Assembly (NCBI GenBank): GCA_001794435.1
Contig: MGJU01000014.1
Coordinates: 27,494-91,493 of the forward strand
DNA: 64,000 nucleotides
Source of the DNA: Candidatus Yanofskybacteria bacterium RIFCSPHIGHO2_02_FULL_43_17
GTDB lineage: Bacteria; Patescibacteriota; Minisyncoccia; 2-02-FULL-40-12; GWA2-44-9
Direction: 5' to 3'
Shown here: positions 5,838-62,059 of the stretch, in pieces
How the letters are laid out: each line of letters begins with the position of its first letter
Position numbering within the stretch: the stretch's first letter is position 1
Position numbers and translations under genes: made by a program
Notes under the pieces: model-generated
Seen by the model: the letters and a program-made list of their open reading frames with translations, nothing else
Told to the model about the DNA's origin: nothing
The model's database searches: none

Positions 5838-5922
5838 GGGCGAGTGGCGGAACTGGAATACGCGCACGGCTTAGGACCGTGTTCCGAAAGGATTGAGGGT
5901 TCGACTCCCTCCTCGCCCACCA
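5838..5922 (+). tRNA. tRNA-Leu (anticodon UAG)
   Basis: long variable arm; anticodon loop CUUAGGA; CCA encoded. Confidence 0.85.
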
Positions 5923-5926
5923 TAAA

Positions 5927-5959
5927 CTCAAAATCCCCATCATGGGGATTTTGAGTTTT
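5927..5959. terminator. intrinsic terminator hairpin
   Basis: CTCAAAATCCCCAT-CAT-GGGGATTTTGAG followed by TTTT; sits between convergent tRNA-Leu and the pilin-like array. Confidence 0.6.
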
Positions 5960-5976
5960 ACTATCGATAACAAAGT

Positions 5977-6348
5977 TTAGGCGAAGAAGGATCGGGTAAT
6001 AAGTCCCGCCAATGTCTGCAGTATCACGCCGACACCCAGCACTACCGCCGCTCCGATCACACCGTTCCATATGGTCGATTGGGCCGATTTGACCTTTTCG
6101 TCGTCGCCTCTGGCTGCCATATACATAACTCCTCCCCAAATAATGAATATAACGGCGAGAATAACTGAAACAATTATCAAAAATTGCGCTATTCTTCTTA
6201 TCAATTCCTCAATCTCAAGTAGGGTTATTGCTGAGCCGGTGGTTGGAGGCGTCGGAGTTGGCAAGGTTCCCGCCAATACCAAAACAGGCATCAAAACCGC
6301 TATTATTGCCAACGCGACTAATGTTGTTCTGCTAATATTTTTTTTCAT
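5977..6348 (-). CDS. T4SS pilin-like (VirB2/TrbC-like) small membrane protein, paralog 1
   Basis: N-terminal signal/TM, PT-rich spacer, C-terminal two-helix hairpin module IIWGGVMYMAARGDDEKVKSAQ...GAAVVLGVGVILQT shared with four neighbouring genes. Confidence 0.55.
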   Translation of the reverse strand: MKKNISRTTLVALAIIAVLMPVLVLAGTLPTPTPPTTGSAITLLEIEELIRRIAQFLIIVSVILAVIFIIWGGVMYMAARGDDEKVKSAQSTIWNGVIGAAVVLGVGVILQTLAGLITRSFFA

Positions 6349-6688
6349 TCCTCCACCTCCCTTCCGCGAAATTTGCCCATGAGGAGTTGCTGAAAGCAGC
6401 CGAATAGCTGCAAATTTCAGCGTCCCGCTCTATCTGGAATCGAAGCTGCAGAATAATACTAGTCAAGACGAAGTCGGTAATTTCACAAAGTCCTGACTGG
6501 CCTATTGCTTTGACTCTAGATAGAGCGGGGTTCCTCGTGTTTTTAACTTACCTTCATTATATCAAATACAAATAAATTTGGTAGTAACCCCGCACCAATC
6601 TTATCCGCTGACCGCCATTAAGAAATGAGGCGGGATTGGAGCGGGGTTAAGTGTTTGTCGCCAATCGCTTCGCTCTTGGACAAACAAC

Positions 6689-7099
6689 TTAATAAATACA
6701 CGTTCCTATAATCGGAATCCTTACGGTACAGAAGAAGTCAAGGGTTATTACAGAAGCTATTGTCTGGATAATTACTCCGACACCGAAAATAATCGCCGCA
6801 CCGATAATACCGCTTCTCAGTCGCGCTTGGGCGGCCGTTACTTTGGTCGCATCATCTCCAGCATACATATATGTCACCCCGCTCCAGATGATGAATATCA
6901 CTGTCAACAAAGCGCTAACTGTGATGAAAAATGTGCTGACCCGAAATATTACATAATCCAAAACATCTAGGGTGATCGGATTGCCCGGAAGCAGGCCCTG
7001 ACTGCCGGCTCTGGAACTTGGAACATTTACAACCATCGCCGGCAATACGTAAGCCAGAAAAATGAATAGTGACGAAACTGTCCGTAATATTTTTTTCAT
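6689..7099 (-). CDS. T4SS pilin-like small membrane protein, paralog 2
   Basis: same C-terminal module (IIWSGVTYMYAGDDATKVTAAQ...GAAIIFGVGVIIQT); start taken at MKKILRT. Confidence 0.55.
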   Translation of the reverse strand: MKKILRTVSSLFIFLAYVLPAMVVNVPSSRAGSQGLLPGNPITLDVLDYVIFRVSTFFITVSALLTVIFIIWSGVTYMYAGDDATKVTAAQARLRSGIIGAAIIFGVGVIIQTIASVITLDFFCTVRIPIIGTCIY

Positions 7100-7213
7100 C
7101 CCGTTAGAAATAGTACAAAGCACCAACTACCACCGTGCGGTGCCATATACTATTATTTATTGTTTTATTGATATTAATATGATTCATACCCATTAGGGTT
7201 ATTTCTAACGGGA

Positions 7214-7558
7214 TTATTCGCAGCTCAACGGTATAAATAAAGTATAATCGGCGCCTAAAGAATTGGCAACCGTAGCAATTATAGTATAAGTTCCGAGTAT
7301 AACTAAAACGCCGACCAATCCCCACAAAAACGACTTTCTGGCTTCGGTCACCTTTGTCGGATCACCTTGCGACATCAAAAATTTCACTCCAAAATAAACA
7401 ACCGCCACCACCACCAAAACAAGGGCGACCCTTGTGATCCAGCAGGCAAGACCGGTTATTATTCCTAAAACATCCTGAATAGTTAAATCTATGCCCGGCG
7501 CAGTTCCGGTCACGCCGTATAATAAAGATCGGGAATTTGGAATTTGGAATTTCATCAA
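7214..7558 (-). CDS. T4SS pilin-like small membrane protein, paralog 3
   Basis: same module (VVYFGVKFLMSQGDPTKVTEARK...VGVLVILGTYTIIAT). Confidence 0.55.
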   Translation of the reverse strand: MMKFQIPNSRSLLYGVTGTAPGIDLTIQDVLGIITGLACWITRVALVLVVVAVVYFGVKFLMSQGDPTKVTEARKSFLWGLVGVLVILGTYTIIATVANSLGADYTLFIPLSCE

Positions 7559-7591
7559 GATTTGTTTAGAAATTAGGACTTACAAATTTAC

Positions 7592-8563
7592 TTAGGGCGT
7601 TCCTCCTAAGTTCAATATGCTCTCTATTAAAGTAATGAATCCTTTGCCTATCATTATTATAGCCAACCCCACCACGGCGTACACTAGTATCTGTCTGGCT
7701 TGAGTCACTTTAGCCGTATCGCCTCGAGAGGTCAAAAACATCACTCCCGCATAAACAATCATAGCTACGGCAATGGGAATGGCGAGGTTAAACAACCAAG
7801 TAGCGATGACATTTATCAATTCTATCAGATTATCCGCCAATATGGGATTAGTGATAGAAAAATTAAACGACTGCGTTGCACCAGGAGCTCCACCGCCTCC
7901 GCCACCACCACCGCCTCCGCCGCCACCGCCACCTCCAGGTGCTTGTTGGCCACAAATATTAACATTGATTTGCAAAGGAGTTCTTCCGGCACAAGCCGGA
8001 ACATCAGATAAATTCTGAAAATTCCCCGGACTGCAAGCGTAAGTGCCGTCACCAGCCACACAGGCCCATATCAATTCTCCGGTACCTACCGTAATCCTGA
8101 CCCTGGGAGACTCGATAACATTTGTATTGTAAATATAACCGGTATTTCCACACTCAATCAGCATATAGACATTTGCATCGGGTCCGCTCCAAGCCGGAAG
8201 TCTTGTTGATTGCGTAACCGATGTCTGAATGCTTTGCCCAGTACGCTGAAAACTCTGCGTACCGCTTGTCAAAACTTCGTCTTCTTCATTATTAAGATCC
8301 AGTTTCAAGCTCCAAACATAAGAACTAATATTATTGTCCCCACAATGCCTAGAATATGCGGCCAAATCTATAACACCCCTCATTGAAAAAGTGACCGGAT
8401 TATTTGGATTAACCACAAGAACTGGATTTGCAGTAAAACTACTGACAGTAAATCCGTTGGCGCTGATACCGCCTACAGTTCCAGCAAGAGCTAGATAATC
8501 AGTCGAAGGATTGATTATAACCAGAATAAAAACATAGAAAAATATGGTAATTTTTCTGATCAT
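7592..8563 (-). CDS. secreted Cys-containing domain fused via (Gly)16 tether to a C-terminal T4SS pilin-like module, paralog 4
   Basis: signal peptide, ~200-aa Cys-rich extracellular domain, G16 run, then MIVYAGVMFLTSRGDTAKVTQARQ...module. Confidence 0.55.
   Translation of the reverse strand: MIRKITIFFYVFILVIINPSTDYLALAGTVGGISANGFTVSSFTANPVLVVNPNNPVTFSMRGVIDLAAYSRHCGDNNISSYVWSLKLDLNNEEDEVLTSGTQSFQRTGQSIQTSVTQSTRLPAWSGPDANVYMLIECGNTGYIYNTNVIESPRVRITVGTGELIWACVAGDGTYACSPGNFQNLSDVPACAGRTPLQINVNICGQQAPGGGGGGGGGGGGGGGGAPGATQSFNFSITNPILADNLIELINVIATWLFNLAIPIAVAMIVYAGVMFLTSRGDTAKVTQARQILVYAVVGLAIIMIGKGFITLIESILNLGGTP
7879..7929 (-). repeat. imperfect (CCN)16 triplet tract encoding poly-Gly
   Basis: ccaccgcctccgccaccaccaccgcctccgccgccaccgccacctcc on the plus strand. 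Confidence 0.8.
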
Positions 8564-8622
8564 TTGTGTAATATGTTTTCCTTAAGTATTGGTATTGATG
8601 ATTTTTTATATCTGGACATCTT

Positions 8623-9294
8623 TCAATTTATTATACCTTGATCGAATTTATCGGTAAATTCGTTTTCCTGAATATGTTTTGCTTTTTCCCGTCTTCGCCA
8701 CACATACCACCCGCCAGCCGCCAGTATGGCAATGACCAGAGTAATTAATATTACCACGTTCGCAGATAAAAACCCCTTGTCCAAATTCGGCGGCGGCACA
8801 GGCACAGCACTTCGACAGTCATTAGGGCAAGTTTGTTCACTTTCCCCTCTGTCAGAATTGCACGTCCCGTCATCGTTGCAAAAGGAACTCTCGCTCACAA
8901 AAACTGTCAGAAGTATTTTCCCTTGCGAGTCATAGAAAACCGCTTTCTGGCCGTCAGGCGCATATGGCGCTTTGACCGAAATTTTACCTTTCAAAAAGTC
9001 GGGGTTGCCTCGTTTGGGATCAAACAAAAACTCCGCCGCCACCCCGTTCTTAAGGTTAATTATTTCTCCCTTAAAAGGGAATTGGGTATTGAACGTCTCG
9101 GGAGTGAATTCTTCTGGAATAACATCGTACTTGAACTCAAAATCCCTATCGGCAAACAACTGGCCGTTATCATAATAGAGATGAAAATTGTAAACATAAC
9201 TATCTTCTATCCTAATATCAGCCCAAGCTGGAAGTAAAAAAACAAACACAGCCACTGATACGAAGAAAAATATTTTAGAAACTAAATTAAACAT
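8623..9294 (-). CDS. secreted protein with C-terminal membrane anchor, Cys-rich segment, unknown function
   Basis: signal peptide MFNLVSKIFFFVSVAVFVFLLPAWA, CNDDGTCNSDRGESEQTCPNDC motif, C-terminal TM plus RRREK. Confidence 0.5.
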   Translation of the reverse strand: MFNLVSKIFFFVSVAVFVFLLPAWADIRIEDSYVYNFHLYYDNGQLFADRDFEFKYDVIPEEFTPETFNTQFPFKGEIINLKNGVAAEFLFDPKRGNPDFLKGKISVKAPYAPDGQKAVFYDSQGKILLTVFVSESSFCNDDGTCNSDRGESEQTCPNDCRSAVPVPPPNLDKGFLSANVVILITLVIAILAAGGWYVWRRREKAKHIQENEFTDKFDQGIIN

Positions 9295-11084
9295 TAAAAT
9301 ATGTTGGCATAACAATACTCGACTCTTGGAGCATACCTCCTTGTAAAAGCATAACTCGTCGGTCGGTCGGCATTACAGATATTATGCGAGTTGTTATCCC
9401 AAAGACACTCCCACCTTCTTGTTTCTCTCCCCTGGCCTCCACACACATCGCACCGTCCTCCGTCTGAAGCCGCAGACGGCCCACAGTTAGCACTAACTGA
9501 ACACGCACCAGCTCCTCCATTATATCCCGCCGCCAACTGTCTTGCATCGCAACCACAAGGACCGGCAATAGAATTCCTCAAATAAGTTGCCGCTATGCAG
9601 GCCTGCTCTTCTATTGTATCGCATCGATTGAGCCAGGCAAAATCAATGGTTTCAGTCACACCACATTGACTCTTATACAACGTAGCTACGTCAGGTTTAA
9701 GTTGGAAAAATCCGGCTGACTCCCCGTCTTCAGCAATAATACTACACCTACCCGACGACTCGTTTGCCGCAATGGATTTTAATAATTTTACTGTATCAAT
9801 TCCGCCGCAAACATTTATATTACCCACTCCAGCAATTATGGCTGCACTGTGAGTATTCACGGCAGAGGCAGCACAATTGCCACCCGGGTTAACTGGTGAA
9901 CAACTTAATGTGTCTGGAGCACCCCCAAAAGTACATGTTGATCCGGTACACAAATTACTCGTATTCGTTTGACTTACCACAATGGTAAAGTTCCTCCTCG
10001 AACTTCTTGTAGTTGGAGGTTCTTCTGTAAGCAAGATTTGGAAAGTAATAGTACCGGCCGTAGTGGGTGTGCCGGAAATAACCCCGGTTGAAGAATTCAA
10101 GTTAAGACCGGCCGGCAATGAACCGGAATATACTGCCCAACGATATGGAGGAGTTCCTCCGGTTCCGGTAATAGTTGTGGAGTAAGCTTGGCCGACTGTG
10201 GCGCCCGGAAGAGCGGCTGGAGTGGTGATAGATAAGGTACCCGTGCCGGTTCCCGCTATGACAATGGTAAAGTCTCTTGTTGCCGATTGCTGGGGCGTTG
10301 AGTTGTCGGTGACTCTGACGGTGAAAGTCGCCGTGCCAACAGCAGTAGGAGTTCCGGAGACAACACCAGAGGCAGTATTAAAACTTAAACCAGCAGGTGG
10401 AGAACCAGTCGTTGTCCAAGCATAAGGAGTTGTACCGCCAGAAACTTGAATTGTCTGAGAGTACTGCTGGCCCACCGTGCCGCCCGGAAGGTCGACGGTA
10501 ACAATGGATAACACTGCTCCCGGTGGTGGAATGGTCGATGTCGGAGTAGGAGTCGGTATTGGAGTGACAGGTGGCGGTGTGGCGGGTACTCTCTCAACAC
10601 AAGTGAACTGCCACCAATTGTCAGCATTGTCGTAGTTGGAACCGACGCTTTTTATCAAAGTGTTGGTTATCATCCACGCCGAAAGTATAATTATAATTCC
10701 GTAGAAAGTGTTTGTAAAAATTGTCCTTCCTTGCGCAACTAAGCCAGGATTGGCTCCGCCAAGCAGGATTAAAAAACCGGCCCATACAAAAAGTAAGACG
10801 GCCAGCACAGGCATCAAGGCGCCAACAGTAAAGTCGATAGTGTTTTTTAAAAGCCTAAAAAGATCGCAACGGCCACAGGATTGATAATAAGAATCATCGA
10901 GCACAACTTTGCCATCAGCTATTTCAGCGGGAGTGGGCCTTTCAAGGCCACAAGGCACCAACGGCCAGCCGGGAAGATCAACAGATTGCTGTCCTCCCAA
11001 GGCAAAGCCGGGGAAAAACAGTAAAATAACTAGCGAGATAAGTAGTAAATTCTTTCTTATCATTTTACTCTTTGATTTTTGCAT
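9294..11084 (-). CDS. chimeric surface protein: N-terminal pilin-like module, Pro/Thr linker, He_PIG-type Ig-like repeats, C-terminal lytic-transglycosylase-like (VirB1-like) domain
   Basis: N-terminus carries the LFVWAGFLILLGGANPGLVAQGR module; three repeats of LPxGxxGxxYSxxI..GGTxPYxW; C-terminus has ANESSG..GFFQL and AAGYNGG motifs reminiscent of the SLT catalytic region. Confidence 0.5.
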   Translation of the reverse strand: MQKSKSKMIRKNLLLISLVILLFFPGFALGGQQSVDLPGWPLVPCGLERPTPAEIADGKVVLDDSYYQSCGRCDLFRLLKNTIDFTVGALMPVLAVLLFVWAGFLILLGGANPGLVAQGRTIFTNTFYGIIIILSAWMITNTLIKSVGSNYDNADNWWQFTCVERVPATPPPVTPIPTPTPTSTIPPPGAVLSIVTVDLPGGTVGQQYSQTIQVSGGTTPYAWTTTGSPPAGLSFNTASGVVSGTPTAVGTATFTVRVTDNSTPQQSATRDFTIVIAGTGTGTLSITTPAALPGATVGQAYSTTITGTGGTPPYRWAVYSGSLPAGLNLNSSTGVISGTPTTAGTITFQILLTEEPPTTRSSRRNFTIVVSQTNTSNLCTGSTCTFGGAPDTLSCSPVNPGGNCAASAVNTHSAAIIAGVGNINVCGGIDTVKLLKSIAANESSGRCSIIAEDGESAGFFQLKPDVATLYKSQCGVTETIDFAWLNRCDTIEEQACIAATYLRNSIAGPCGCDARQLAAGYNGGAGACSVSANCGPSAASDGGRCDVCGGQGRETRRWECLWDNNSHNICNADRPTSYAFTRRYAPRVEYCYANIF

Positions 11085-11092
11085 TTTAAACC

Positions 11093-12427
11093 TTATCGAC
11101 TGCGTCGCGACCTTGCCATCAACACATTAACTTCCGATTCGGCGTTCTGGATTGCCTCTCTTACTGAAAGCCGACCAAAGTTAATGTCATCTATCATTTC
11201 GGCAAATATGGATTCTATCGCGGAATTGTCTATTTGATACCATGATTTTGCAGTAAGGGCTTGGTTGGCAAAAACACCTAATCGCAAATCGTTCTTCTGA
11301 AGATCTATAATATCGCGTCGCGCCGAAGGCCGCATCGTTTGGGCAAGATAGCTTGATGCTCCCTCTCTGGAAGCAAGGTAGGTCACGAACTTCCAGGCTT
11401 GATTGGAGACTAACGAGTTCTTTGAAACAGCGACGGCCCAATAGTTGGCGTAGTTTTTGATATCGCTCTCGCTTATCTGCGGCATGGACGCAACAGAATA
11501 ATTCAAGCGCGCGGCTTTTTGACTTAAAACTCCGGCCTGATGGGAATAGTTGAACATCATCGCAACTTTTCCGTCAACGAAGGCATCAATTGAATACGGC
11601 TGGGCATTGTTCCACGTATAGGTTCTTATATTGGGATTGGCAAAATCGGTGTAATATCTCAAAGCCACCTCGCCAATGGGAGTGTTGTTTACAGACCTTG
11701 CGAATGTGGCGCTAGTGTTGTTTATATCGGTCATTCTTGCGCCGCTTTGAAGCATAAGGGCCATAAGCACATCTGTTGACCTGTTAATATTTTCTGACGT
11801 GCCCATAGCCGCGCCTGATTGCATGATATTTCCCGAGGCATCGAGTTTGGTGAGTCGCTCGACTGCATTGTTGAATTCATCCCAATTTTTCGGAGGCGAA
11901 GTAATGCCGGCATTATTGAAAAGATCCCTGTTGTAGTAGAGAGCGAGGGTATCGACATATAAAGGCACCCCGTATATCTTGCCGCCGACGATTAAATCCT
12001 GAGTGGCAACTTCAACAAACTGGCTCTGAAAATCCTTTACGGACATCGGCGGACGGTCCAAACCGGAGATTTTCTCCGGAAGAGGCATAAGTTTGTCTAG
12101 ATGTTTTGGCAGCCAAGTCTGATGTATCATCCAAATATCAGGTCCCGTGCCGGCCGCAAGAGCGTTTACCACTTCCCTCTCGTAATCCTCGAATGAGAAT
12201 TGTCTATACACGACCGTAGTGCCAGGATTTTGAGTTTGGAATTCTCTGATAACCTTGTCGAAAACTGTCTTGTCGTCAAAAACGCCCCAGAACTCTACGG
12301 CAACTCTCGGACCAATGCCGCCCCCGCCGACATTGCGCAGGATTAAAATAAGCGTGAGAAAGACAAGTATCGCAATACCCGAAACGAGAATTATCATCAG
12401 TCTCTTGTTGTCTATCTGAATTGGCAA
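11093..12427 (-). CDS. ABC-transporter extracellular solute-binding protein (family 1, sugar-type), orphan
   Basis: N-terminal TM/signal; VEFWGVFDDKTVFDKVIREFQTQNPG...DIWMIHQTWLP pattern; no permease or ATPase nearby. Confidence 0.7.
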   Translation of the reverse strand: MPIQIDNKRLMIILVSGIAILVFLTLILILRNVGGGGIGPRVAVEFWGVFDDKTVFDKVIREFQTQNPGTTVVYRQFSFEDYEREVVNALAAGTGPDIWMIHQTWLPKHLDKLMPLPEKISGLDRPPMSVKDFQSQFVEVATQDLIVGGKIYGVPLYVDTLALYYNRDLFNNAGITSPPKNWDEFNNAVERLTKLDASGNIMQSGAAMGTSENINRSTDVLMALMLQSGARMTDINNTSATFARSVNNTPIGEVALRYYTDFANPNIRTYTWNNAQPYSIDAFVDGKVAMMFNYSHQAGVLSQKAARLNYSVASMPQISESDIKNYANYWAVAVSKNSLVSNQAWKFVTYLASREGASSYLAQTMRPSARRDIIDLQKNDLRLGVFANQALTAKSWYQIDNSAIESIFAEMIDDINFGRLSVREAIQNAESEVNVLMARSRRSR

Positions 12428-19967: not shown

Positions 19968-20774
19968 ATGGCCACGAAGAAGGTTCGGAAGATGAAGAAG
20001 GACGAGATCCCGGTCACAGCCGGAGAACTCTCGGACATCGAGAAGCAAGACCTGGCGGCGACAGCGCCCGCCGACGACAAGGGCGACGGCGAAGCGAGCG
20101 ATCGCCTGCCGTACCACACGTTCGAGCCGGAAGTCTTCCAGCGCTGGACCCGACACGAGAACGGCCTCCACTTGGTCCCGAAGTACCGCTGGGACATGGT
20201 CGCACGGCTGAACGGCGGCCCGCTCTCGGTGGCCAACACCGAGCGGATCGTTCGGGTCGACCCGGCGCTGGGTCGGGCGACGTGCGGATTCCTCGGGCAT
20301 GGGAAGGAGTTCGTCGCCTATATGGTGGCGTTCATCCTGAACAAGCCGGGGCAGGAGGGTCAGCTGATGACTCGTGACAAGTACGTCACAACGGACAACC
20401 CCGAGGGGGTTGTCTACATGGGCTGCGTCGTCCGCGTCAAGGACGAGAACAACCACGTGGTTCCTCTCACGTGCTGCCCCGAGCACGTGGAAGCGGCCCA
20501 GAACGCCGTCGAGCTGGCCTCGGCCCGTCGCGACAAGGACGGAAAGATCGTCGAGCGCGGCTTCCGTCCGCCGGCCCAGTCGATGGGCCAAGCCCTCATC
20601 GACATCCAGGCCATTGTGACCAAGGCCGAACAGCGCCGCGACGAGACCCAGAAGGCCGTCGAGGCCTACGGTGGCAAGCGGCGAGAGTTCGGTGGGAGTC
20701 CCCACATGGCAACCAGCGGCCGCCAGGGCCGCGAGCGCGACCCGCGCGAGCGGAGCATCGGGAACCGCGGCTAA
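19968..20774 (+). CDS. hypothetical protein on GC-rich island 2
   Basis: AAAGGAGG RBS then ATG; GC ~62%; Cys/His cluster CGFLGHG...CCPEH; no known domain recognised. Confidence 0.5.
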   Translation: MATKKVRKMKKDEIPVTAGELSDIEKQDLAATAPADDKGDGEASDRLPYHTFEPEVFQRWTRHENGLHLVPKYRWDMVARLNGGPLSVANTERIVRVDPALGRATCGFLGHGKEFVAYMVAFILNKPGQEGQLMTRDKYVTTDNPEGVVYMGCVVRVKDENNHVVPLTCCPEHVEAAQNAVELASARRDKDGKIVERGFRPPAQSMGQALIDIQAIVTKAEQRRDETQKAVEAYGGKRREFGGSPHMATSGRQGRERDPRERSIGNRG

Positions 20775-20794
20775 CCCCGCGTTCCCGAGCACGC

Positions 20795-20850
20795 AACCCG
20801 GAAGGAGGGTGGAGGCACAACCTCCTTCCCTTCTTCCGGGTCGTTTTAAT
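20795..20850 (+). terminator. intrinsic terminator
   Basis: CCCGGAAGGAGGGTGGAGGCACAACCTCCTTCCCTTCTTCCGGG then TCGTTTT. Confidence 0.6.
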
Positions 20851-21132
20851 ATTTACCCGAGCGCAACGAAGTGAGCACGGTTGTAAATATTAACCCCGCA
20901 CTAATTTTGCCGACTACTCTGATAAGAATATTGAGCTAAGGACTACTTATTTAACACTCGCAAAGCGCGAGGGCCGAATAGGCCCACCCCTTATGGGCGC
21001 AGCACTTTGCCATAATAAAATCACAAAATTATTGCTGGGGTAATAAGTATTTACTAATGAAATTTTAAAACAAAGATTTTATTAGCTAGTACTTATACAA
21101 TCGGGAAGAGAACGGGAAGGGAAGGAGGCTAA

Positions 21133-22599
21133 GTGAAGACCACGAGGAGTTGGTACCGCCAGCTTGGCGAGTACCGGACGAACAAAGCTGGAAAGAAAAT
21201 TAGAGGCGTCATTGGCACCACGATGCATTTGTTCCGCATTTGCGGAAAGAATATCATCATTGAATGCGGCATCGGCTTTGACAGGAACGGTGAGTTTCAG
21301 GCCCAGTACGTACCCGATGGCAACTGGCTTATCGGAACTCATATTGATTTGATCATCCTCACCCACAAGCACCTGGATCATTCGGGGGCAATTCCCCGTC
21401 TTGTGTGGCATCACCCGGAAGCGCTGGTGTTGATGTCGGCCAAATGTTTTGACGGCACAGTGATAGCCGTTGAAGATTCTTTGAAGATCTGGCGCAACGA
21501 GGCGAATAACGCCGAGCGGAATGGTTTGCCCGTTCCGGAGCCGATCTTCACAGAAGAAATGGCTGAAGCGTTTTTCAATAACCCCAACTTGAGGGTGTTC
21601 AATCCTCCTTACTGGCTTGATCCGCAGGAAGACCTTCGCGGTCAGTGGCCGGGATGGGAAATTGGATTCTACGGTGCCGGTCACGATACCGGCGCAGTAT
21701 CTGTCTACATGATCCGACCGGATGGTAAGTATCTCTATCTGACCGGCGATATTGCCAGCCATGACGGAGAGAACGCCCGCGGTGTTCTTCTGCCGCCTGA
21801 CGACTTCCTTGGCGACTTCTTTGACCGTCCCGGAACGATGGTCACCGAAGCGACCAACGGCGGCCGCCGGATGGAAAAGCCGCGCAGTCAACTGGATGAA
21901 GAGCTCAACCGATTTATCAAGTCGGTTGATGCAAAAGGGGGCATTCTCCTGTGCGCCGAATTCGCGGGCACCAAAAGCGGCAACATGATGGTCAAGCTGA
22001 ATAATCTTGGCTACAAAGTTGTCGTTGACGGACTTGCCCGCCGGCATATCCGGGTTGAGGTTCCGGATGTTGACCAGAGGATCAGGGACGGCCGAGTCGT
22101 GTTCATTGAAGAACGCGACCAAGAGCTCGCGTGGAAACAGCGGGCCGACTACGCCGCCGGCGTTCACGGCTTTGTGTCCATAATCGCCGCGTCGGGTTCT
22201 ATGGATCAGGGCTTTGCCGCATCGGCATACGGGCCCGTGATCCTTGAGGGTGAGAAAAACGCTGTTGTCTTCACAAGCCATATCTTTGATGACTCCACCA
22301 CGCAACGACTGCTCAATATCAAGCGTGGTCGGACGATTAAGATGAAAAAGTTCGTCAACGGACGGCTCGAGCCGATTCGAGTCAATGTCCGTTGTGAAGT
22401 TAGACATTTCGGCTACTCGTCGCATGATTATCAGGACGGGTTAGTCGAGCGAGTCCGGCTCGCAAGACCGGAGGAGACGCTCATTGTCCACCACTGCCCG
22501 GGCAAGGCAACGTTTGACGCCTTTGCCGAACGAGTGAATTCCCTGCCCCCTCCCCCGAAAACAATCTGGGGACTCAATGGCAGAAAGATATTTATTTAA
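21133..22599 (+). CDS. MBL-fold hydrolase, beta-CASP-like putative nuclease (GC-rich island 2)
   Basis: THKHLDHSG HxHxDH motif, later GAGHDTGAV and YSSHD motifs; AGGAGG RBS then GTG start. Confidence 0.6.
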   Translation: MKTTRSWYRQLGEYRTNKAGKKIRGVIGTTMHLFRICGKNIIIECGIGFDRNGEFQAQYVPDGNWLIGTHIDLIILTHKHLDHSGAIPRLVWHHPEALVLMSAKCFDGTVIAVEDSLKIWRNEANNAERNGLPVPEPIFTEEMAEAFFNNPNLRVFNPPYWLDPQEDLRGQWPGWEIGFYGAGHDTGAVSVYMIRPDGKYLYLTGDIASHDGENARGVLLPPDDFLGDFFDRPGTMVTEATNGGRRMEKPRSQLDEELNRFIKSVDAKGGILLCAEFAGTKSGNMMVKLNNLGYKVVVDGLARRHIRVEVPDVDQRIRDGRVVFIEERDQELAWKQRADYAAGVHGFVSIIAASGSMDQGFAASAYGPVILEGEKNAVVFTSHIFDDSTTQRLLNIKRGRTIKMKKFVNGRLEPIRVNVRCEVRHFGYSSHDYQDGLVERVRLARPEETLIVHHCPGKATFDAFAERVNSLPPPPKTIWGLNGRKIFI

Positions 22600-43140: not shown

Positions 43141-44814
43141 ATGCCTGAAGACAAATCAACAAAAAAAGAGGAGGAGCTGGAGAAAAAACTCTTAGATATG
43201 AGAGGGCGGGCGGAAGAAGACAAATATAAAGCTCTTGCCCAACAGTTGAACCTTCCCTACTCCAATCTTATATCAATTCCCATCGATACTGATGCGCTAT
43301 CTTTATTAAGCGAAGAAGAAGCTCGCTCAGCCAGTATCGCCCCAATATTCCAAAAGGACTCAAAAATCATTGTAGTAACAGTGGACCCTACCAACCCCGT
43401 GACTCAAAAGGTTATTTCCAGACTGAAAGAGAACAGCGAGGTTGATGTGATTTTGACAAATCCTCGATCCCTTCAAAACATTCTGAAAAGGTACCGGGAC
43501 ATAAAAAAGGCGGATGTTTTTGAGGTCGGAGCAATAGAAATACGAGAGAAAGAGTTAGACCGGCTTGAAGGTGAGATAAAAAACATCTCAGATATAAAAG
43601 AGCGAATGAAAAAAATGTCCGCCACAAGCCTGTTAGAAATGATCGTGGCTGGAGCCTTAAAAACAGAGGCATCGGATATACACCTGGAACCCGAATCGGA
43701 CAAGATCCGGCTGAGATACCGACTCGACGGTCTTTTGCATGACATAGCCTCTTTAGATGAACCGTCTTATGAGAAGGTGTTGAATAGAATAAAGGTTTTG
43801 TCGAAAATCAAACTTAATATTCACAACACCCCCCAAGATGGACGATTTACCATACGTCTGAAAACCGTATCTATAGAGGTGAGGGTGTCGGTCTTACCAA
43901 GCGAATTCGGCGAAACCGTCGTAATACGGCTTCTTGATCCAAGAACAATTAAAAGAAGCCTCGAAGAGCTGGGGATGAGAGACGACTTGCTAAATAAGGT
44001 TAAGGAAGTCCTGAAAAAACCGACGGGAGCCATCTTTACGACCGGTCCAACCGGTTCCGGTAAAACAACGATGCTATATGCTTTCGTCAGCTACCTTAAC
44101 TCACCCGAAACCAAAATAGTAACAATAGAGGATCCGATAGAATACCACATCGAGGGTATATCCCAGACCCAAGTTGACACCCATAAAGGATATACTTTTG
44201 CCAACGGCTTAAGGGCCATCGTTAGACAAGACCCTGACATTATCCTTGTAGGAGAGATAAGGGATGCCGAAACGGCCAATATCGCTTTACAATCCGCCCT
44301 TACGGGGCACTTAGTACTGTCAACTATCCACACAAATGACGCCGCCGGCACCATTCCCCGCTTGATAGATCTCGACATAAGGCCTCAAATAATAGCCCCT
44401 GCCATAAATGTGGCGATGGCCCAGCGCCTAGTCAGAAAATTGTGTCCCAACTGCAAGAAAATGGAAAAGATCGAGACAGAAGACTTGAAAAAAATAAAAG
44501 CACTATTAGAACCATTGTCGAAATTTCGAAATATCGATATGTCAAAATATCCGAAGCTAGACGCCAGTTTGGAGATAGGCACCCCTGGAAAATGCACAGA
44601 ATGCAATGATTCGGGCTACAAAGGGCGTATCGGTGTCTTTGAAGCGTTTGAGATGTCGCGGGAAATGGAGAAATTAATATTGAGATCGCCGGCAATGTCG
44701 GAGGTAAGGGATCTAGCTATAACCGAGGGCATGGTAACAATGCTGCAAGATGCGTACATCAAGCTGATCAACGGAGTAACATCGATGGAAGAAATAGACA
44801 GAGTGTTAGGATAG
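43141..44814 (+). CDS. pilB: type IV pilus/type II secretion assembly ATPase (PilB/GspE family)
   Basis: GPTGSGKTT Walker A, IEDPIEY, ILVGEIRD, tetra-Cys zinc motif CPNC...CTEC. Confidence 0.9.
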   Translation: MPEDKSTKKEEELEKKLLDMRGRAEEDKYKALAQQLNLPYSNLISIPIDTDALSLLSEEEARSASIAPIFQKDSKIIVVTVDPTNPVTQKVISRLKENSEVDVILTNPRSLQNILKRYRDIKKADVFEVGAIEIREKELDRLEGEIKNISDIKERMKKMSATSLLEMIVAGALKTEASDIHLEPESDKIRLRYRLDGLLHDIASLDEPSYEKVLNRIKVLSKIKLNIHNTPQDGRFTIRLKTVSIEVRVSVLPSEFGETVVIRLLDPRTIKRSLEELGMRDDLLNKVKEVLKKPTGAIFTTGPTGSGKTTMLYAFVSYLNSPETKIVTIEDPIEYHIEGISQTQVDTHKGYTFANGLRAIVRQDPDIILVGEIRDAETANIALQSALTGHLVLSTIHTNDAAGTIPRLIDLDIRPQIIAPAINVAMAQRLVRKLCPNCKKMEKIETEDLKKIKALLEPLSKFRNIDMSKYPKLDASLEIGTPGKCTECNDSGYKGRIGVFEAFEMSREMEKLILRSPAMSEVRDLAITEGMVTMLQDAYIKLINGVTSMEEIDRVLG

Positions 44815-58517: not shown

Positions 58518-59210
58518 TTATGCGATTCCCGTTTCTCCGGTTGCTTCCAAAACCGAATCCGACGCTTCCCTTGCGTTTTTATAGCTCTCTTTTTCTGCTC
58601 TATAGCTTAACCAAATTCCAACCAGCATCCAGGGAACAAGCGCCAGAAAAGGCACCAGATTTAAAGTACCGGCCGCCACGGATCTCAATATTGGGCTTTT
58701 GGCGCTTTTGGCTACTCCTCTTAAAGCCACTCTCGCTCGCCTTACGGTTCTCAAATGAAGTTTACGGTATAGCTGTTTTGCTCCCGGAATTTTGCGGCTT
58801 AATCGGGCCACTCTTAAAATGTTTCTTTCAGCATTGGCTATGCGCGCCACTAAGGCGTCAATTTTTTTCTGGATATTTTCAGCATACTCATCTGCTCTTT
58901 TTTGTTTTGTATTGGTGAACCAGAAAATAAGGATTATAACTGCCGAAACGGCGAAAGAAATTATCCTCCCAACGATTGCGCCCAGACCGGTTAGGTCAAT
59001 AAAATCAACGATATCAACTATCACTGCCAATGATGCGAGGATTGAGTATTTGAATAACGAGGGGCGATGATATGTTTGTCCTTGGTTATATAATTCCACT
59101 GCTTCAGCTTGCGCGGCATAAAGCTCTTGTTCTGCGGCAAGCTCGTCGGCATACTGCTCCTCTTCGGCTACCTCTTCGTCAGTATTTCTAGTTGTTTGTT
59201 CTTCGGGCAT
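58518..59210 (-). CDS. membrane protein of T4SS-like module, unknown role
   Basis: acidic N-terminus, 2-3 TM helices, basic central segment. Confidence 0.4.
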   Translation of the reverse strand: MPEEQTTRNTDEEVAEEEQYADELAAEQELYAAQAEAVELYNQGQTYHRPSLFKYSILASLAVIVDIVDFIDLTGLGAIVGRIISFAVSAVIILIFWFTNTKQKRADEYAENIQKKIDALVARIANAERNILRVARLSRKIPGAKQLYRKLHLRTVRRARVALRGVAKSAKSPILRSVAAGTLNLVPFLALVPWMLVGIWLSYRAEKESYKNAREASDSVLEATGETGIA

Positions 59211-59260: not shown

Positions 59261-61009
59261 TTAGCTTCTCAACTTTGCCCACTCTTCCTTGGCTTTTTCT
59301 ATTTCAAGTATCTGTCTCGGATCGGAGGTTATTATCTGGTCTTCGGCATAAGATGCCAGAACTCTGATGCCGATGTGGTTTTGGCCGACAAAGAAAAGTC
59401 CGAAACCGACCCTTGCTTCAAGCAGATAATATTTCTCTCCGTCAGTAAGGTTAAATGTTTTCTGGACTATATCTATCGCCGCAGGCGACTGCTTCATCAG
59501 AATTTGCATAGACGAGTTGGTTACGATGCTTTTGCCTTTGTCGGTGGAAAGCATGTCGTTGATGTCCTGCGATATCGTGGTCAGGCCGAGATAATATTTT
59601 CTGGCTCGTTTTGCAATGTTGGACAGAAAGTCCGCGCCGATATCGTATTTCATAAGCCACCACGCCTCATCGACTATCAAAAGCCGCTTCTTCTGGACTC
59701 TTCTTACGGATGTCCATATGTGATTGAGTATCGAGTACATTGCAATCGGCCTTAGCTCTTCTTCCATGTCTCTGATACTGAATACAACAAGGTTATTGTC
59801 CAATAAAACATTGGTCGGCATGTTTAAAAATCCAGCAAAAGTACCTTCAGTATATTTTTTAAGCCGTATCGCCATTGATTCGGCTCCGGTAAGCCCTTCA
59901 AGTATGTTTTGGAGGTCGGATAAGACCGGAGGCGTGGCATTGGTGAAATTGGAATCCGGGGTTATGTCTTTTATCGCGTATGTTTGTATCAGCGCCTCGT
60001 CGAGTATTGAATTTTCTTCCGGTGTCAGTTCCCCGAGCATCAGCCGCAGAAGACCAGTAAGGTCTAAAATATGCGATTTGAACACATCAGCCGGCGACTC
60101 GTCTTGTTTTGGAACAGGAAGGTCCAGGGGGTTTATATGTTGGTCGGAAGTGATGGATATTTTAATGGGTGAGCCGCCAACTGTCTCGGCTAGGTATTTG
60201 TACTCGTCCTCGGGGTCGATGATCAATACTTGGGTACCGAATATCAAACTTCTCAAGATTTCCAGCTTTACCGTGTAACTCTTCCCCCCACCTGATTTTC
60301 CAAAAACAACGGCATTGTAGTTTTCTAGTTGGAATCTGTCGAACAAAACCAAGGAGTTGTTGTGAGTGTTGATGCCATAGAGTATACCGTCATGAGAGGT
60401 CAGGTCAAAAGAAACAAACGGGAAAATCGACGATAAGGGCTCAGTATTGAGAGAAGTATGAATATTGAGACGGTCATCGTTTATGGGCAGTGTAGAGATG
60501 AATCCCTCCAGCATTCTGAATGTTGCCACTTTTGGAAAGACGAGCTGGTATTCCAACATGCCTCGTAATTTGTTTTCCGTCTCATCCAGTTCTTTTAAGC
60601 TGTTTTCGTAGATTGTTATGTACACGCCTAGCTCGAAAAATTTATCTGTTCCTTGCTGAAGCCGGTCTCGCAAGTTCTCTATGTCCTGAATGGCTGTCTC
60701 CAGAATGGGGTCTCTGACTTTTCCCTTAGCCGCTTCTTCCATGGTTTGGGACTCAAGGCGGCTAAGCTGGTCGCGAAGCTGTTTTAAAACCGTTGTCGTG
60801 TTTTTGGGCAGTACGAATATCGAAATATCGAAAACTCTGTCCAGGTTTATAACTGGAGAAAACCACTTTGTCTGCAAATACCTTGGATATGTCGCTAGAA
60901 AAATAGTTCGGGCAAACTTATCCCCCACCTGAATGTAAGAAGGAGCGATATTAAATGCTCCCGGTGCAAGATATTCTGACATTTTATTTTTCTGTTGCTC
61001 AGCAGCCAT
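59261..61009 (-). CDS. VirB4/TrbE/CagE-family conjugative-type ATPase (C-terminal ~3/4 of a split gene)
   Basis: Walker A VVFGKSGGGKSYTV, Walker B LLIVDEAWWLM, family-typical N-terminal IAPSYIQVGDKFARTIFLATYP. Confidence 0.8.
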   Translation of the reverse strand: MAAEQQKNKMSEYLAPGAFNIAPSYIQVGDKFARTIFLATYPRYLQTKWFSPVINLDRVFDISIFVLPKNTTTVLKQLRDQLSRLESQTMEEAAKGKVRDPILETAIQDIENLRDRLQQGTDKFFELGVYITIYENSLKELDETENKLRGMLEYQLVFPKVATFRMLEGFISTLPINDDRLNIHTSLNTEPLSSIFPFVSFDLTSHDGILYGINTHNNSLVLFDRFQLENYNAVVFGKSGGGKSYTVKLEILRSLIFGTQVLIIDPEDEYKYLAETVGGSPIKISITSDQHINPLDLPVPKQDESPADVFKSHILDLTGLLRLMLGELTPEENSILDEALIQTYAIKDITPDSNFTNATPPVLSDLQNILEGLTGAESMAIRLKKYTEGTFAGFLNMPTNVLLDNNLVVFSIRDMEEELRPIAMYSILNHIWTSVRRVQKKRLLIVDEAWWLMKYDIGADFLSNIAKRARKYYLGLTTISQDINDMLSTDKGKSIVTNSSMQILMKQSPAAIDIVQKTFNLTDGEKYYLLEARVGFGLFFVGQNHIGIRVLASYAEDQIITSDPRQILEIEKAKEEWAKLRS

Positions 61010-61028: not shown

Positions 61029-61646
61029 CTAGTCGTCCTTGGTTGGATTATAGAGCTGATAATACAAGTTCTTAAGTTCCTCGTCCTCAAGCTGGGTTAT
61101 CTGAAGGCCTAATCCGGCAAGGCCGCCGTAAACCAGCTCGGCTCTTTGGAGCAACTGGTTTTTGTAAGAGTTGAATTGTTCGCCCGTCAGTTCTTTGGGT
61201 ATGGTCTGGGGACTCAATATTCCCTTTAAGCTTCGGATCAACCCCGTGGCTTCCGGTTTTTCGTAGATGTAAAAAGGAACCGCGATATAGAACCTCTTAG
61301 ACATTATGTTGGACAAACTCGAGAGTTCTTTTATAAATCTTGAATATTCTGAGGCTTGGATCTTCATAAGTTCGTTGGTTGTCGACTCGACAATCTCGCC
61401 CACGATCTTAAGATAGCCGCTTATGTCCAGTTCTCTGGAGCTGACAATGATTTGAAGAGGAAAATCAACGGAATTGAGAAAATTTTGAAAACCCTGAAGT
61501 ATCGCTACTTGTTCATCGGCGGATCTTAACTCAAAATTTATAGCCGAAATCTCTAAAACCATCCTGAGAGAGCCATTCTTAAGAACAACCACCCCTTCAC
61601 GGATATCAGAAATAGGGACTAAATTTTCGGTGGATTGGTTGGGCAT
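61029..61646 (-). CDS. VirB4 N-terminal-domain-like protein (upstream part of split VirB4)
   Basis: PISDIREGVVVLKNGSLRMVLEISAINFELRSADEQVAILQGFQNFLN resembles the VirB4/TcpF N-domain; stops 19 nt before the ATPase ORF. Confidence 0.55.
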   Translation of the reverse strand: MPNQSTENLVPISDIREGVVVLKNGSLRMVLEISAINFELRSADEQVAILQGFQNFLNSVDFPLQIIVSSRELDISGYLKIVGEIVESTTNELMKIQASEYSRFIKELSSLSNIMSKRFYIAVPFYIYEKPEATGLIRSLKGILSPQTIPKELTGEQFNSYKNQLLQRAELVYGGLAGLGLQITQLEDEELKNLYYQLYNPTKDD

Positions 61647-61750: not shown

Positions 61751-62059
61751 TTAGATTCTAGTTTTTAAATTATTATCCTCGTCTTTTCTGAATATGTATC
61801 GTTTAGGGTTTAATAAATATGAAAGTAGATACGCGATGTAATTGATTAACGGCATCCCGTCTATTTTCAGGAAAGCAAAAGCCAGAAATATCGCCGCTAT
61901 CGGTACTCCGGCGGCGAAGAATATAAATCCACCCTGCGTAGTCGTAAACAGAAGAAATAGTATCGACACTCCGCCGGCTACCCACAGAAACTGCTTCAAA
62001 GTAAGCGGGCCGACCAATTTCGTCTCTGTTTCTATGAATTGTGGTAATTGAAACCTCAT
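61751..62059 (-). CDS. VirB3/PrgI-like small two-TM protein
   Basis: 102 aa, two adjacent TM helices, located directly upstream of VirB4 as in Gram-positive-type T4SS. Confidence 0.45.
   Translation of the reverse strand: MRFQLPQFIETETKLVGPLTLKQFLWVAGGVSILFLLFTTTQGGFIFFAAGVPIAAIFLAFAFLKIDGMPLINYIAYLLSYLLNPKRYIFRKDEDNNLKTRI

Follow-up and report, generated by a model that had tools for sequence, protein, structure and literature searches.

What does a co-oriented run of five divergent pilin-like genes contribute to an ultra-small cell: a filament, a membrane channel or a changeable surface repertoire? The locus lies at positions 5977–11084 of the window (the whole 64,000-nucleotide stretch analysed). 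The host, Candidatus Yanofskybacteria (Patescibacteria/CPR), is an ultra-small groundwater bacterium. An ORF check recovered all five genes of the first-pass annotation at their positions, on the minus strand and in the same direction, with a common two-helix module of ~75 aa (products of 123, 136, 114, 323 and 596 aa), and each of the five motif strings quoted there is present verbatim. The length given for p137 needs a small correction: the product has 136 aa from the ATG, the earlier 137 counting one extra codon (145 aa if translation begins at an alternative TTG at 7126). Three of the proteins are minimal and two carry large passengers, as had been described. A sixth gene, p230, which encodes a non-pilin membrane protein, is placed inside the array, and the order is p596–p230–p323–p114–p137–p123, with p596 first and p123 last (Table 1). 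The array is chromosomal and flanked by gyrA/SBP and VanW/HSP20/LeuRS, a placement kept in dozens of species.

Table 1. Coordinates of the cassette, its downstream flank and the T4SS core in the window.
Feature	Position	Strand	Evidence or remark
tRNA-Leu	5838–5922		convergent with p123
Perfect hairpin, 17-bp stem	5924..5958	.	inverted repeat I4, 100% complementary; 3′ of p123 stop
p123, candidate major pilin (123 aa)	5977..6348	-	PF18895 38.5 bits; TrbC 25.2 bits
Intergenic region upstream of p123	6349..6688	-	unusually long, strongly structured
p137, small pilin-like protein (136 aa)	6689..7099	-	PF18895 21.9 bits (sub-cut-off); TrbC 17.6 bits
p114, small pilin-like protein (114 aa)	7214..7558	-	PF18895 27.0 bits
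p323 (323 aa)	7592..8563	-	PF18895 35.3 bits; C-terminal pilin hairpin at aa 244–320
p230, conserved non-pilin single-pass membrane protein	8623..9294	-	orthology and predicted topology
p596 (596 aa), first cassette gene	9294..11084	-	Pfam: He_PIG 2.2e-28; T4SS_pilin 33.2 bits; SLT 17.2 bits
p596 SLT catalytic domain (aa 433–527)	9504..9788	-	PF01464 via orthologues, and motifs
p596 pilin hairpin module (aa 87–143)	10656..10826	-	PF18895 match
VirB4-like T4SS ATPase	59261..61009	-	NCBIfam conju_CD1110 355.7 bits (cut-off 325)
TrsD/VirB4-N-terminal-like protein	61029..61646	-	VirB4_plasma 9.4e-13 (N-terminal part), TrsD 8.4e-6 (NCBIfam); both under curated cut-offs
PrgI/VirB3-like small membrane protein	61751..62059	-	Pfam PF12666 PrgI 40 bits (cut-off 27)

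Profile searches support the earlier assignment of the module to the T4SS-pilin (VirB2/TrbC-like) family rather than to type IV (PilA) pilins. PF18895 (T4SS_pilin) was matched by all five proteins, p137 alone scoring under the gathering cut-off (26.6 bits) and the other four clearing it. The gathering cut-off of TrbC (PF04956) was reached by none of the five window proteins; within the p123 orthologue family, 55 of 60 members matched TrbC at E ≤ 0.01 (best, 4.4e-8), and one orthologue is named 'TrbC/VirB2 family protein' by NCBI. Class III signal and LPXTG motifs are absent from the array proteins. A signal peptide and two hydrophobic segments are predicted throughout, except that p114 lacks the N-terminal signal peptide that its orthologues have in the alignment; the cytoplasmic loop is not net basic (+3/−3 in p123). 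Paralogue pairs share 19–42% identity in pairwise BLASTP (E = 1e-30 to 2e-4, values inflated by hydrophobic bias because composition correction was off), p323 and p596 being the sole pair joined just via other paralogues. An HMM of the module matched the five array proteins alone among 733 window ORFs of ≥40 aa (next best, E = 0.17), a test that is circular for the five proteins themselves. The hairpin was modelled in p123 (AF2; pLDDT 83, helices 43–78 and 83–122) and p323 (pLDDT 81); neither sequence-profile nor fold searches recovered an experimentally solved T4SS pilin. Profile–profile comparison with eight bona fide VirB2/TrbC proteins returned a probability of 15% (E = 0.0018; hhalign). 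Because fold searches cannot tell helical hairpins apart, pilus formation is something that we infer.

The three small proteins differ in detail. p123 has an SPase I-type signal peptide (..VLVLA↓G) followed by the hairpin, and its orthologues are 60–83% identical across the full length; its conservation is comparable to that of neighbouring chromosomal genes (in L023, 77% compared with 75% for SBP and 87% for GyrA). It alone within the array has a strong GGAGG ribosome-binding site. The long region upstream (MFE −128.4 kcal/mol, z = −6.73) bears an extended −10-like TGATATAAT, matched no Rfam family and is conserved in relatives only in short segments; it may supply the major pilin gene with an internal promoter and a 5′ UTR. 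The hairpin beyond the p123 stop, common to p123 and the convergent tRNA-Leu, is likely to be the cassette terminator. Besides its signal peptide, p137 (42% identical to p123; orthologues 52–71%) has a C-terminal pair of Cys (FFCTVRIPIIGTCIY) that is conserved; in p114 (orthologues 61–78%) conserved Cys mark both the C-terminus and the outer end of helix 1.

In p323, a signal peptide precedes an Ig-like β-sandwich and a small Cys-rich module (aa ~33–200; passenger pLDDT >90), which a poly-Gly linker (aa 212–237) separates from the hairpin. The hairpin is 62–80% identical in orthologues and the passenger can be aligned only within a closer subset of relatives; on this comparison, p323 couples a highly conserved hairpin to an Ig-like passenger that is hypervariable. 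A fold search with the passenger gave generic Ig-like matches only. p230 had been taken for a Cys-rich secreted protein embedded in the array. Embedded it is, but as a predicted single-pass membrane protein with five Cys, four of them in one CX5CX10CX3C knot: an N-terminal signal/TM segment leads into a ~140-aa ectodomain, the knot, a C-terminal TM anchor and a basic tail (223 aa from an ATG overlapping the p596 stop, or 230 aa from a TTG). Searches of Pfam, NCBIfam and PDB gave no match for p230; its positional orthologues are 58–68% identical, and it occurs in 21 of 38 complete arrays.

The largest product, p596, joins a pilin hairpin to a cell-wall enzyme. From the N-terminus it comprises a signal peptide, a Cys-flanked VirB2-like hairpin, a PT-rich linker, two He_PIG Ig domains, an SLT domain and a Cys-rich C-terminus (22 Cys). 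Conserved Cys line the outer side of the hairpin (PLVPC and a CxxC before helix 1, WWQFTC after helix 2), and C38, C63, C66, W150 and C155 are invariant or nearly so in 110 relatives. The SLT domain was assigned through orthologue matches and conserved motifs, its own score (17–20 bits) being under the Pfam cut-off of 21.3: all ten aligned orthologue SLT domains matched PF01464 (best, 1.3e-14), and when the profile is matched to the lytic transglycosylase EmtA (6gi4; E = 0.003) the ES motifs line up. p596 itself carries ANESSG (with the catalytic Glu-Ser), GFFQL and AAGYNGG; in the alignment E61, S62, Q80 and A138–N141 are invariant, as are the ES, GLMQ-like and AYNGG motifs. With active-site residues intact, the domain is predicted to be active in a VirB1-like function. 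Orthologues bear PF18895, PF05345 and PF01464 (p596 itself is named 'Transglycosylase SLT domain-containing protein' in UniProt), and a pilin–(Ig/FN3)–SLT architecture recurs in at least 32 protein clusters (32 of the 110 representatives).

Comparison across species bears directly on the 'diversified repertoire' that the first-pass annotation had envisaged. In three further Yanofskybacteria genomes (L006, L008 and L009) every one of the six genes has a 1:1 orthologue at the corresponding position, in fixed order, and these orthologues are 52–82% identical, far above any paralogue pair, which argues against interchangeable or copy-variable paralogues. Nor did copy number bear the idea out: among 38 complete arrays from other species, pilin modules number mostly 4–5 (mode, 5; range, 3 to 8), and many of these arrays have the same core order. 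An SLT fusion is present in 12 of them; the 26 without it keep their pilins. On this evidence the cassette appears to encode specialised subunits rather than a repertoire that varies.

The same annotation had suggested that the array may serve T4SS-like machinery at 57–64 kb. A monoderm-type core (VirB4, TrsD-like and PrgI/VirB3-like) is indeed present at 59.3–62.1 kb, adjoining dnaA; its functional link to the array is one that we infer. The VirB4-like gene, which lies close to dnaA/dnaN at a distance of 48 kb from the array, also matches Pfam P-loop_TraG, AAA_10 and CagE_TrbE_VirB, and no VirB6, VirB8 or VirD4 homologue was identified within the window. A distant relative (L074) has a pilin array no more than 6 kb away from PrgI and TrsD-like genes.

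We consider it fairly probable (about 60%) that the six-gene cassette supplies the Patescibacteria T4SS with its VirB2-like 'pilins', these specialised subunits being assembled into a pilus or conduit. This T4SS would be a chromosomal, relaxase-less system derived from monoderm conjugation systems, here with its core near the replication origin. Each array protein would be inserted through Sec/YidC as an N-out/C-out hairpin whose short loop (GDxxKVxxA[QR]) is cytoplasmic; the Cys-rich and PT-linked passengers, which precede the hairpin in p323 and follow it in p596, require both of its ends to be outside. Both termini also face outward in VirB2/TraA pili, a geometry that would allow passenger-bearing subunits to enter a filament. 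The five pilin-like proteins would be anciently diverged and not interchangeable: p123, with its full-length conservation, sole strong ribosome-binding site, possible promoter of its own and terminator, could be the abundant major subunit, and p137 and p114 minor subunits with disulfide-stapled outer ends. p323 may present a fast-evolving binding domain on its flexible Gly linker for host or surface recognition, the SLT of p596 may open peptidoglycan in VirB1 fashion from its two Ig spacers (in the cell's own wall and possibly that of the host), and p230 would be a conserved accessory membrane protein. The VirB4 machine would then extract the hairpins from the membrane and build a pilus or conduit touching the host cell. 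To our knowledge, no pili have so far been seen in Patescibacteria.

A different, rather unlikely arrangement would leave the hairpins in the membrane: the small proteins would be integral T4SS channel subunits, a role also assumed for Mbov_0395-type 'pilin-like' proteins of Mycoplasma ICEs, no filament would form, and the hairpins of p323 and p596 would merely be surface tethers for an adhesin domain and for a cell-wall hydrolase, respectively. The generic fold, with nothing specific to solved pilins, the weak link to true VirB2 and the joining of big passengers at either end of the hairpin all suit this arrangement, as do the best NCBIfam matches of p123, p137 and p114, which are to the Mycoplasma ICE family (NF045849; 17–30 bits, under the 40-bit cut-off); we know of no pilus in mycoplasmas, which are wall-less monoderms. 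Monoderm T4SSs, too, are generally without pili (PMC12102498; PMC10633639). Five distinct, separately conserved hairpin proteins nevertheless exceed the needs of anchoring, some p123-family members attain TrbC/VirB2 significance, and pilus formation is judged plausible by the field's reviewers (PMC12857230).

It seems improbable that the paralogues stand in for one another as major pilins or adhesins, varying antigenicity or host range as strains gain and lose copies. Such arrays have been suggested to aid adaptation to different host strains, by comparison with the VirB2 paralogues of Bartonella and Anaplasma (PMC12102498), and the spread of array sizes across species and the hypervariable p323 passenger would suit that role. 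The 1:1 orthologues in conserved order, the low identity and ancient divergence of the paralogues and the neighbour-like conservation of p123 speak against it; moreover, the array is 100% identical in five independent contigs of the source population, and no repeats, invertible segments or recombinase genes were found in or beside it. The pilin series of Southlakia epibionticum ML1 is essential (Wang et al. 2023, PMC10633639; PMC12857230), which argues for non-redundant subunits. Least credible is a lysis or bacteriocin-type cassette (a prophage remnant or autolysis module) in which holin-like two-TM proteins release or activate the p596 muramidase. Small two-TM proteins beside a muralytic enzyme do superficially recall holin–endolysin pairs; this reading is disfavoured by the conserved chromosomal site, the absence of phage genes near the array, the Sec signal peptides and significant PF18895 matches, the joining of the SLT itself to the hairpin via Ig spacers and the retention of pilins in arrays without the fusion.

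The array is of a kind already known, since a 2025 study whose dataset contains this genome (assembly given as GCA_001795625.1) reported divergent VirB2-like arrays in Patescibacteria: 441 arrays of 2–11 genes with a mean identity of 25%, tandem or split by one non-pilin gene (Quinonero-Coronel et al. 2025, PMC12102498). Ours agrees with them in phylum, in detection by the same Pfam families (PF18895 and PF04956), in co-oriented divergent genes with an occasional single non-pilin interruption, in a mean identity of ~25% and in a relaxase-less, MPF_FATA-like T4SS core near dnaA; the S. epibionticum array, in contrast, lies inside the T4SS cluster. What is added here is the fixed-order cassette with 1:1 orthologues, the pilin–Ig–SLT architecture and the hypervariable p323 passenger. 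The main text of that study does not describe pilin–SLT fusions, passenger-bearing pilins, the p230 partner or gene-by-gene orthology, and in the text searched 'fusion' is used solely for VirB3–VirB4. The Mycoplasma ICE proteins are likewise small two-TM proteins of a monoderm MPF_FATA-type system, but single-copy rather than in a chromosomal array. With the diderm MPF_T pilins (Agrobacterium VirB2 and RP4 TrbC; PF04956) the module shares a signal peptide, two hydrophobic helices, a short loop, a size of ~100–125 aa and a helix-to-helix alignment in register, although the window proteins fall under the TrbC curated cut-off with an hhalign probability of just 15%, and five paralogues in a monoderm host replace one pilin gene. 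By analogy, the extracellular Cys pairs may fill the role of head-to-tail cyclisation in TrbC/VirB2. A lytic transglycosylase gene directly precedes the diderm pilin gene (virB1–virB2–virB3), and SLT-bearing p596 is likewise first, but VirB1 is a separate protein whereas the p596 SLT is covalently joined to a hairpin. Like VirB1 and the monoderm T4SS hydrolases (pIP501 TraG, PrgK, TcpG and CD419/TrsG types), p596 is a membrane-tethered, SLT-family lytic transglycosylase encoded with T4SS components and keeping the catalytic Glu-Ser motif; it differs in its tether (a VirB2-like hairpin with He_PIG Ig spacers), in a Cys-rich C-terminal extension, in lacking a CHAP or M23 second domain and in lying in a pilin array rather than beside virB4. 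This pilin–cell-wall-enzyme fusion is the less-described feature of an otherwise reported arrangement.

Six minus-strand genes of the same orientation occupy positions 5977–11084 in the ORF reading, and five of them (p596, p323, p114, p137 and p123) encode a common module of ~75 amino acids in which a hydrophobic helix, a GDxxKVxxA[QR] loop and a second hydrophobic helix follow one another; the module was found in no further ORF when the whole window was scanned. Pairwise, the five module proteins are 19–42% identical (BLASTP E = 1e-30 to 2e-4), and p137 is 42% identical to p123. The first-pass annotation had described five co-oriented genes with a common module, which is borne out, and all of its motif strings were found in the sequence; four of its gene lengths were right, the protein given as 137 aa having 136 aa from its ATG. 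The embedded protein that it called Cys-rich and secreted (p230) instead spans the membrane once and has a single four-Cys knot.

Features of the cassette and of other loci discussed in the text (window positions; identity is to the positional orthologues in three other Yanofskybacteria genomes)
Feature	Position	Strand	Length	Identity
p596	9294-11084	minus	596 aa	45-54%
p230	8623-9294	minus	223 aa from ATG overlapping p596 stop; 230 aa from TTG start	58-68%
p323	7592-8563	minus	323 aa	62-79% (hairpin only)
p114	7214-7558	minus	114 aa	61-78%
p137	6689-7099	minus	136 aa	52-71%
p123	5977-6348	minus	123 aa	62-82%
p137-p123 gap	6349-6688	minus	340 nt	
Inverted repeats in that gap	6424-6446/6507-6529 and 6585-6600/6634-6649			
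Inverted repeat at p114-p137 spacer	7098-7112/7200-7214		15 nt	
Four-Cys knot of p230	8700-8790			
Solute-binding protein (SBP)	11093-12427	minus		
G+C spike	20001-22000			
Long ORF under G+C spike	21082-22425	minus		
Long ORF under G+C spike	21133-22599	plus		
PilB/GspE-type ATPase	43141-44814	plus		
Multi-TM protein	58518-59210		230 aa	
T4SS core	59.3-62.1 kb			
Protein with internal repeats	62545-63957	minus	470 aa	

In its AF2 model (pLDDT 83), p123 has helices at residues 43–78 and 83–122 with a short loop between, preceded by an SPase I-type signal peptide, and the hairpin helices of p323 span 246–278 and 283–320; a hydropathy scan likewise gave the two hydrophobic helices and short loop of the T4SS_pilin family (PF18895). 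Both p137 and p114 are small hairpins whose extracellular ends carry conserved Cys. The confident p323 model (pLDDT 81) places an N-terminal Ig-like sandwich and a small Cys-rich module before a disordered poly-Gly linker and the hairpin, and a fold search with this passenger (the large non-hairpin part) gave generic Ig-like domains as sole neighbours and no functional lead. A Cys-rich passenger precedes the hairpin in p323 and another follows it in p596, so both ends of the hairpin should face outward and its loop should be cytoplasmic, an arrangement that would correspond to VirB2 topology. The knot of p230 (CNxDGxCxxxxGExxxxCxxDC, residues ~146–167) is small, and the same type stands in place of the poly-Gly linker in the p323 orthologues of two homologous loci (L006 and L008) and in relatives, which suggests an extracellular mini-domain common to p230 and p323 relatives within the cassette. 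The p114 protein is without the hydrophobic N-terminal signal peptide found in the orthologues of loci L006, L008 and L009, and its ORF cannot be extended beyond 7579; it is either leaderless at insertion or impaired in this genome.

Four module proteins passed the PF18895 gathering cut-off of 26.6 bits (p123, 38.5; p114, 27.0; p323, 35.3; p596, 33.2 bits), p137 fell below it (21.9 bits, E = 1.9e-4), and 60/60 members of the p123 family matched. Scores for TrbC/VirB2 (PF04956; cut-off, 27.9 bits) were all under the cut-off (p123, 25.2; p137, 17.6; p323, 16.9; p596, 13.7 bits; p114, no match). Among 60 p123 orthologues, 55 matched PF04956 at E <= 0.01 (best, 4.4e-8), and one is labelled a TrbC/VirB2 family protein by NCBI. 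Judged by sequence, the window proteins are superfamily-level relatives of TrbC/VirB2 and not certified members; the VirB2/TrbC-type reading proposed earlier gains PF18895 membership and loses at the PF04956 cut-off, which all five missed. The best NCBIfam matches, all sub-threshold, were to the 'pilin-like conjugal transfer protein' of Mycoplasma ICE. When the array pilin profile was compared by hhalign with eight annotated VirB2/TrbC genes taken from MPF_T plasmids, 74 columns aligned in register with a probability of 15% (E = 0.0018), a profile–profile likeness that is suggestive only. Sequence and profile searches of the PDB with p123, the p123 family and p230 returned nothing relevant and no solved pilin.

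Other pilus classes were considered and rejected. The six proteins contain no class III signal motif (regex) and match no Pfam type IV pilin, which agrees with the earlier assignment of the module as T4SS-pilin-like rather than type IV (PilA). Sortase-assembled Gram-positive pilins were set aside as no LPXTG motif occurs in the six proteins; p230 matched the LPXTG anchor model weakly (E = 0.037), in its TM-plus-basic-tail part only. A weak NCBIfam match to CPR_pilus_PamR reflects merely the Ig domains of p596, the Pam pilus of CPR bacteria being an unrelated Ig donor-strand system (Pam pilus preprint).

The largest protein, p596, begins with a signal peptide and the hairpin, which has four conserved Cys at its flanks; a PT-rich linker then leads to two He_PIG Ig domains and a predicted SLT domain. 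It scored 17.2 bits against PF01464 (SLT) as a whole protein and 19.8 bits as the domain alone, both below the gathering cut-off of 21.3 bits; 10/10 aligned orthologue SLT domains matched (best, 1.3e-14), and precomputed PF01464 matches exist on p596 orthologues. The p596 domain carries ANESSG, GFFQL and AAGYNGG, corresponding to the catalytic Glu-Ser, GLMQ-type and AYNxG-type motifs, and E61, S62, Q80 and A138–N141 are invariant in the alignment of p596-family SLT domains. Against the PDB, the C-terminal domain as a single sequence found no match and the family profile alone succeeded, retrieving the lytic transglycosylase EmtA with the catalytic Glu-Ser aligned. The SLT prediction is therefore weak on p596 alone and secure for the family. 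The Cys-flanked hairpin has 5016 relatives (E <= 1e-3) among 1.84 billion cluster representatives, and 110 of the best included 32 with SLT, 25 with He_PIG and 33 with FN3-like domains; hairpin plus spacer plus SLT is a recurrent design and not a local accident.

The same cassette was found in three other Yanofskybacteria genomes (L006, L008 and L009), flanked by gyrA–methyltransferase–SBP on one side and VanW–HSP20–PrsW–LeuRS–TsaD on the other, and the best match of each cassette gene there was the gene at the same position. All these orthologue identities clearly exceed those between paralogues; the duplications are accordingly old and the copies non-interchangeable. Between the window and these three genomes the passenger of p323 could not be aligned at all; it is alignable among a subset of closer relatives. 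A scan with one genome per species gave 60 loci, and 38 arrays were complete (not ended by a contig edge), with five module-bearing ORFs in 14, four in 13, six in 3, seven in 3, eight in 2, three in 1 and one in 2. A P230 orthologue was present in 21/38 complete arrays and a pilin–SLT fusion in 12/38. The array is 100% identical on five contigs of this population from different samples, which are therefore silent on strain-level variation, micro-diversity and poly-Gly length variation. In L006 (GCA_016185505), a Polbeta nucleotidyltransferase/HepT-like toxin–antitoxin pair lies between the p323 and p114 orthologues (6238–6899 of that locus). Many species-representative MAGs (L020–L022, L027, L034–L037 and others) have a Yanofskybacteria-type cassette with gyrA/SBP synteny under the title 'uncultured Candidatus Saccharibacteria' (binchicken assemblies) or, for L037, 'Planctomycetota'; such titles probably reflect generic or mis-assigned taxonomy, or bin contamination.

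Only p123 has a strong GGAGG ribosome-binding site within the cassette. The gap upstream of it contains a TGATATAAT element and two inverted repeats and is predicted to fold stably (MFE, -128.4 kcal/mol; z = -6.73 versus shuffled controls); it matched no Rfam family. Equivalent gaps in relatives measure 86–220 nt and also hold GC-rich hairpins, conservation being confined to ~22 nt at the 5' end and the ribosome-binding site. For the putative major pilin gene, the gap could provide a structured 5' UTR or a regulatory RNA. A perfect 17-bp hairpin, a candidate terminator given by a repeat finder, lies 3' of p123, and a candidate extended -10 element was read by eye; promoter and terminator consensus scans did not exceed shuffled expectation. 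A perfect 15-nt inverted repeat frames the entire p114–p137 spacer and extends into the stop of p114 and the start of p137; it might affect initiation of p137 translation by coupling or occlusion.

The window consists of ordinary chromosome (gyrA, leuS, tsaD, dnaN, dnaA, yidC and rnpA, with an orphan solute-binding protein, NusA, trigger factor, PBP1 and a PilB-type ATPase), and identical proteins, the five pilin-like ones under OGN02621-OGN02626, are encoded on MGKJ01000014.1, a contig of GCA_001795625.1, which is a Candidatus Yanofskybacteria (Patescibacteria, class Paceibacteria) genome from Rifle groundwater. Adjoining dnaA is a monoderm-type T4SS core of VirB4 (CD1110 family; 355.7 bits, cut-off 325), PrgI/VirB3-like (40 bits, cut-off 27) and TrsD/VirB4-N-like proteins; VirB6, VirB8, VirD4 and a relaxase were not recognised within the window. 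On the contig that they share, 48 kb separate the array from VirB4 and PrgI; it is not adjacent to virB3/virB4, and a pilin array adjoining T4SS genes was seen only in a distant relative (L074). Two proteins near the core are candidates for unrecognised T4SS components: one of 470 aa, immediately upstream of the core, which contains two long internal repeats (..KRKVAEVMAEKGEFD.. and ..KRKSAEVMAEKGDPS..) and matches no family, and a multi-TM protein downstream of virB4, likewise unassigned. The membrane-anchored SBP_bac_1 protein is encoded 8 nt upstream of p596, in the same orientation, and has no adjacent ABC permease or ATPase genes; its homologue is directly upstream of the array in 38/60 related loci (30–82% identity), and it is possibly co-transcribed with the cassette. 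The PilB/GspE-type ATPase (T2SSE, 2.2e-116, plus MshEN domain) implies that the genome encodes machinery of a type IV pilus or T2SS as well, distinct from the VirB2-like array. The G+C spike (0.573 versus about 0.44 elsewhere) overlies two overlapping long ORFs and has no rRNA or other Rfam match.

Our preferred reading, with a probability of about 0.6, is that the cassette is a specialised subunit kit of a Patescibacteria T4SS surface structure. Here p123 would be the major subunit, p137 and p114 minor subunits, p323 a variable binding subunit and p596 a tethered VirB1-like wall-opening enzyme, with p230 as an accessory protein of unspecified role and assembly by the VirB4 machine at 59–62 kb. 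What is established is membership in the 'T4SS pilin-like' protein family, not filament formation, and the main rival, in which the hairpins serve merely as anchors in the membrane or as parts of a channel and no filament is made, is conceivable if somewhat unlikely. The refuting check proposed with the first-pass annotation speaks neither way: the HMM search gave the PF18895 match, and fold searches yield thousands of unrelated helical hairpins. The paralogues had earlier been taken for a diversified repertoire, an idea that their 1:1 positional orthologues and fixed order disfavour and that we consider improbable. A holin–endolysin cassette was considered and rejected, lysis being very unlikely.

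The subunit-kit reading can be extended to a heteromeric T4SS pilus in monoderm CPR whose minor subunits would display cargo domains on the surface of the filament or at its tip, a combination that we regard as rather doubtful. The cargo would be a putative hypervariable Ig-like adhesin (p323) and a putative catalytically active lytic transglycosylase (p596); the pilus might act as a 'drill', the host being recognised and its peptidoglycan opened locally to give an epibiotic or parasitic junction; and disulfide stapling of the hairpin ends might replace TrbC/VirB2 head-to-tail cyclisation.

Patescibacteria account for a sizeable fraction of bacterial diversity and spend their lives on host cells, to which they attach. 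In the sole species tested, the T4SS and its pilin series are required for this lifestyle, and the Yanofskybacteria 'array' would be a conserved multi-subunit kit in which one pilin tethers a cell-wall hydrolase and another a variable binding domain. The locus offers separable hypotheses for a major, an adhesin and a wall-opening subunit, and the pilin–SLT fusion may explain the apparent want of a stand-alone VirB1 in many Patescibacteria with VirB2 homologues.

A survey of 3,035 Patescibacteria genomes with PF18895 and PF04956 (Quinonero-Coronel et al. 2025, PMC12102498), which covered GCA_001795625.1 (its Table S1), found VirB2-like pilins in 1,948 assemblies, with a pilin gene near virB4 in 1135/1948, and counted 441 arrays; T4SS genes lie near dnaA and relaxases are absent. 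Pilin–SLT fusions are not mentioned in the main text of that paper. In Southlakia epibionticum, a series of predicted pilins lies within an essential T4SS cluster (Wang et al. 2023, PMC10633639). The published arrays are defined by 2–11 pilin genes, in tandem or with one non-pilin gene between, low mutual identity and a Patescibacteria-type VirB4 (PMC12102498); the present locus, with five pilin genes, one intervening non-pilin gene, 19–42% identity and a VirB4, is such an array and thus an already described kind of system; the modestly new architectural detail added to it appears to lie in the pilin–SLT fusion, the conserved partner P230 and the orthology of the single genes.
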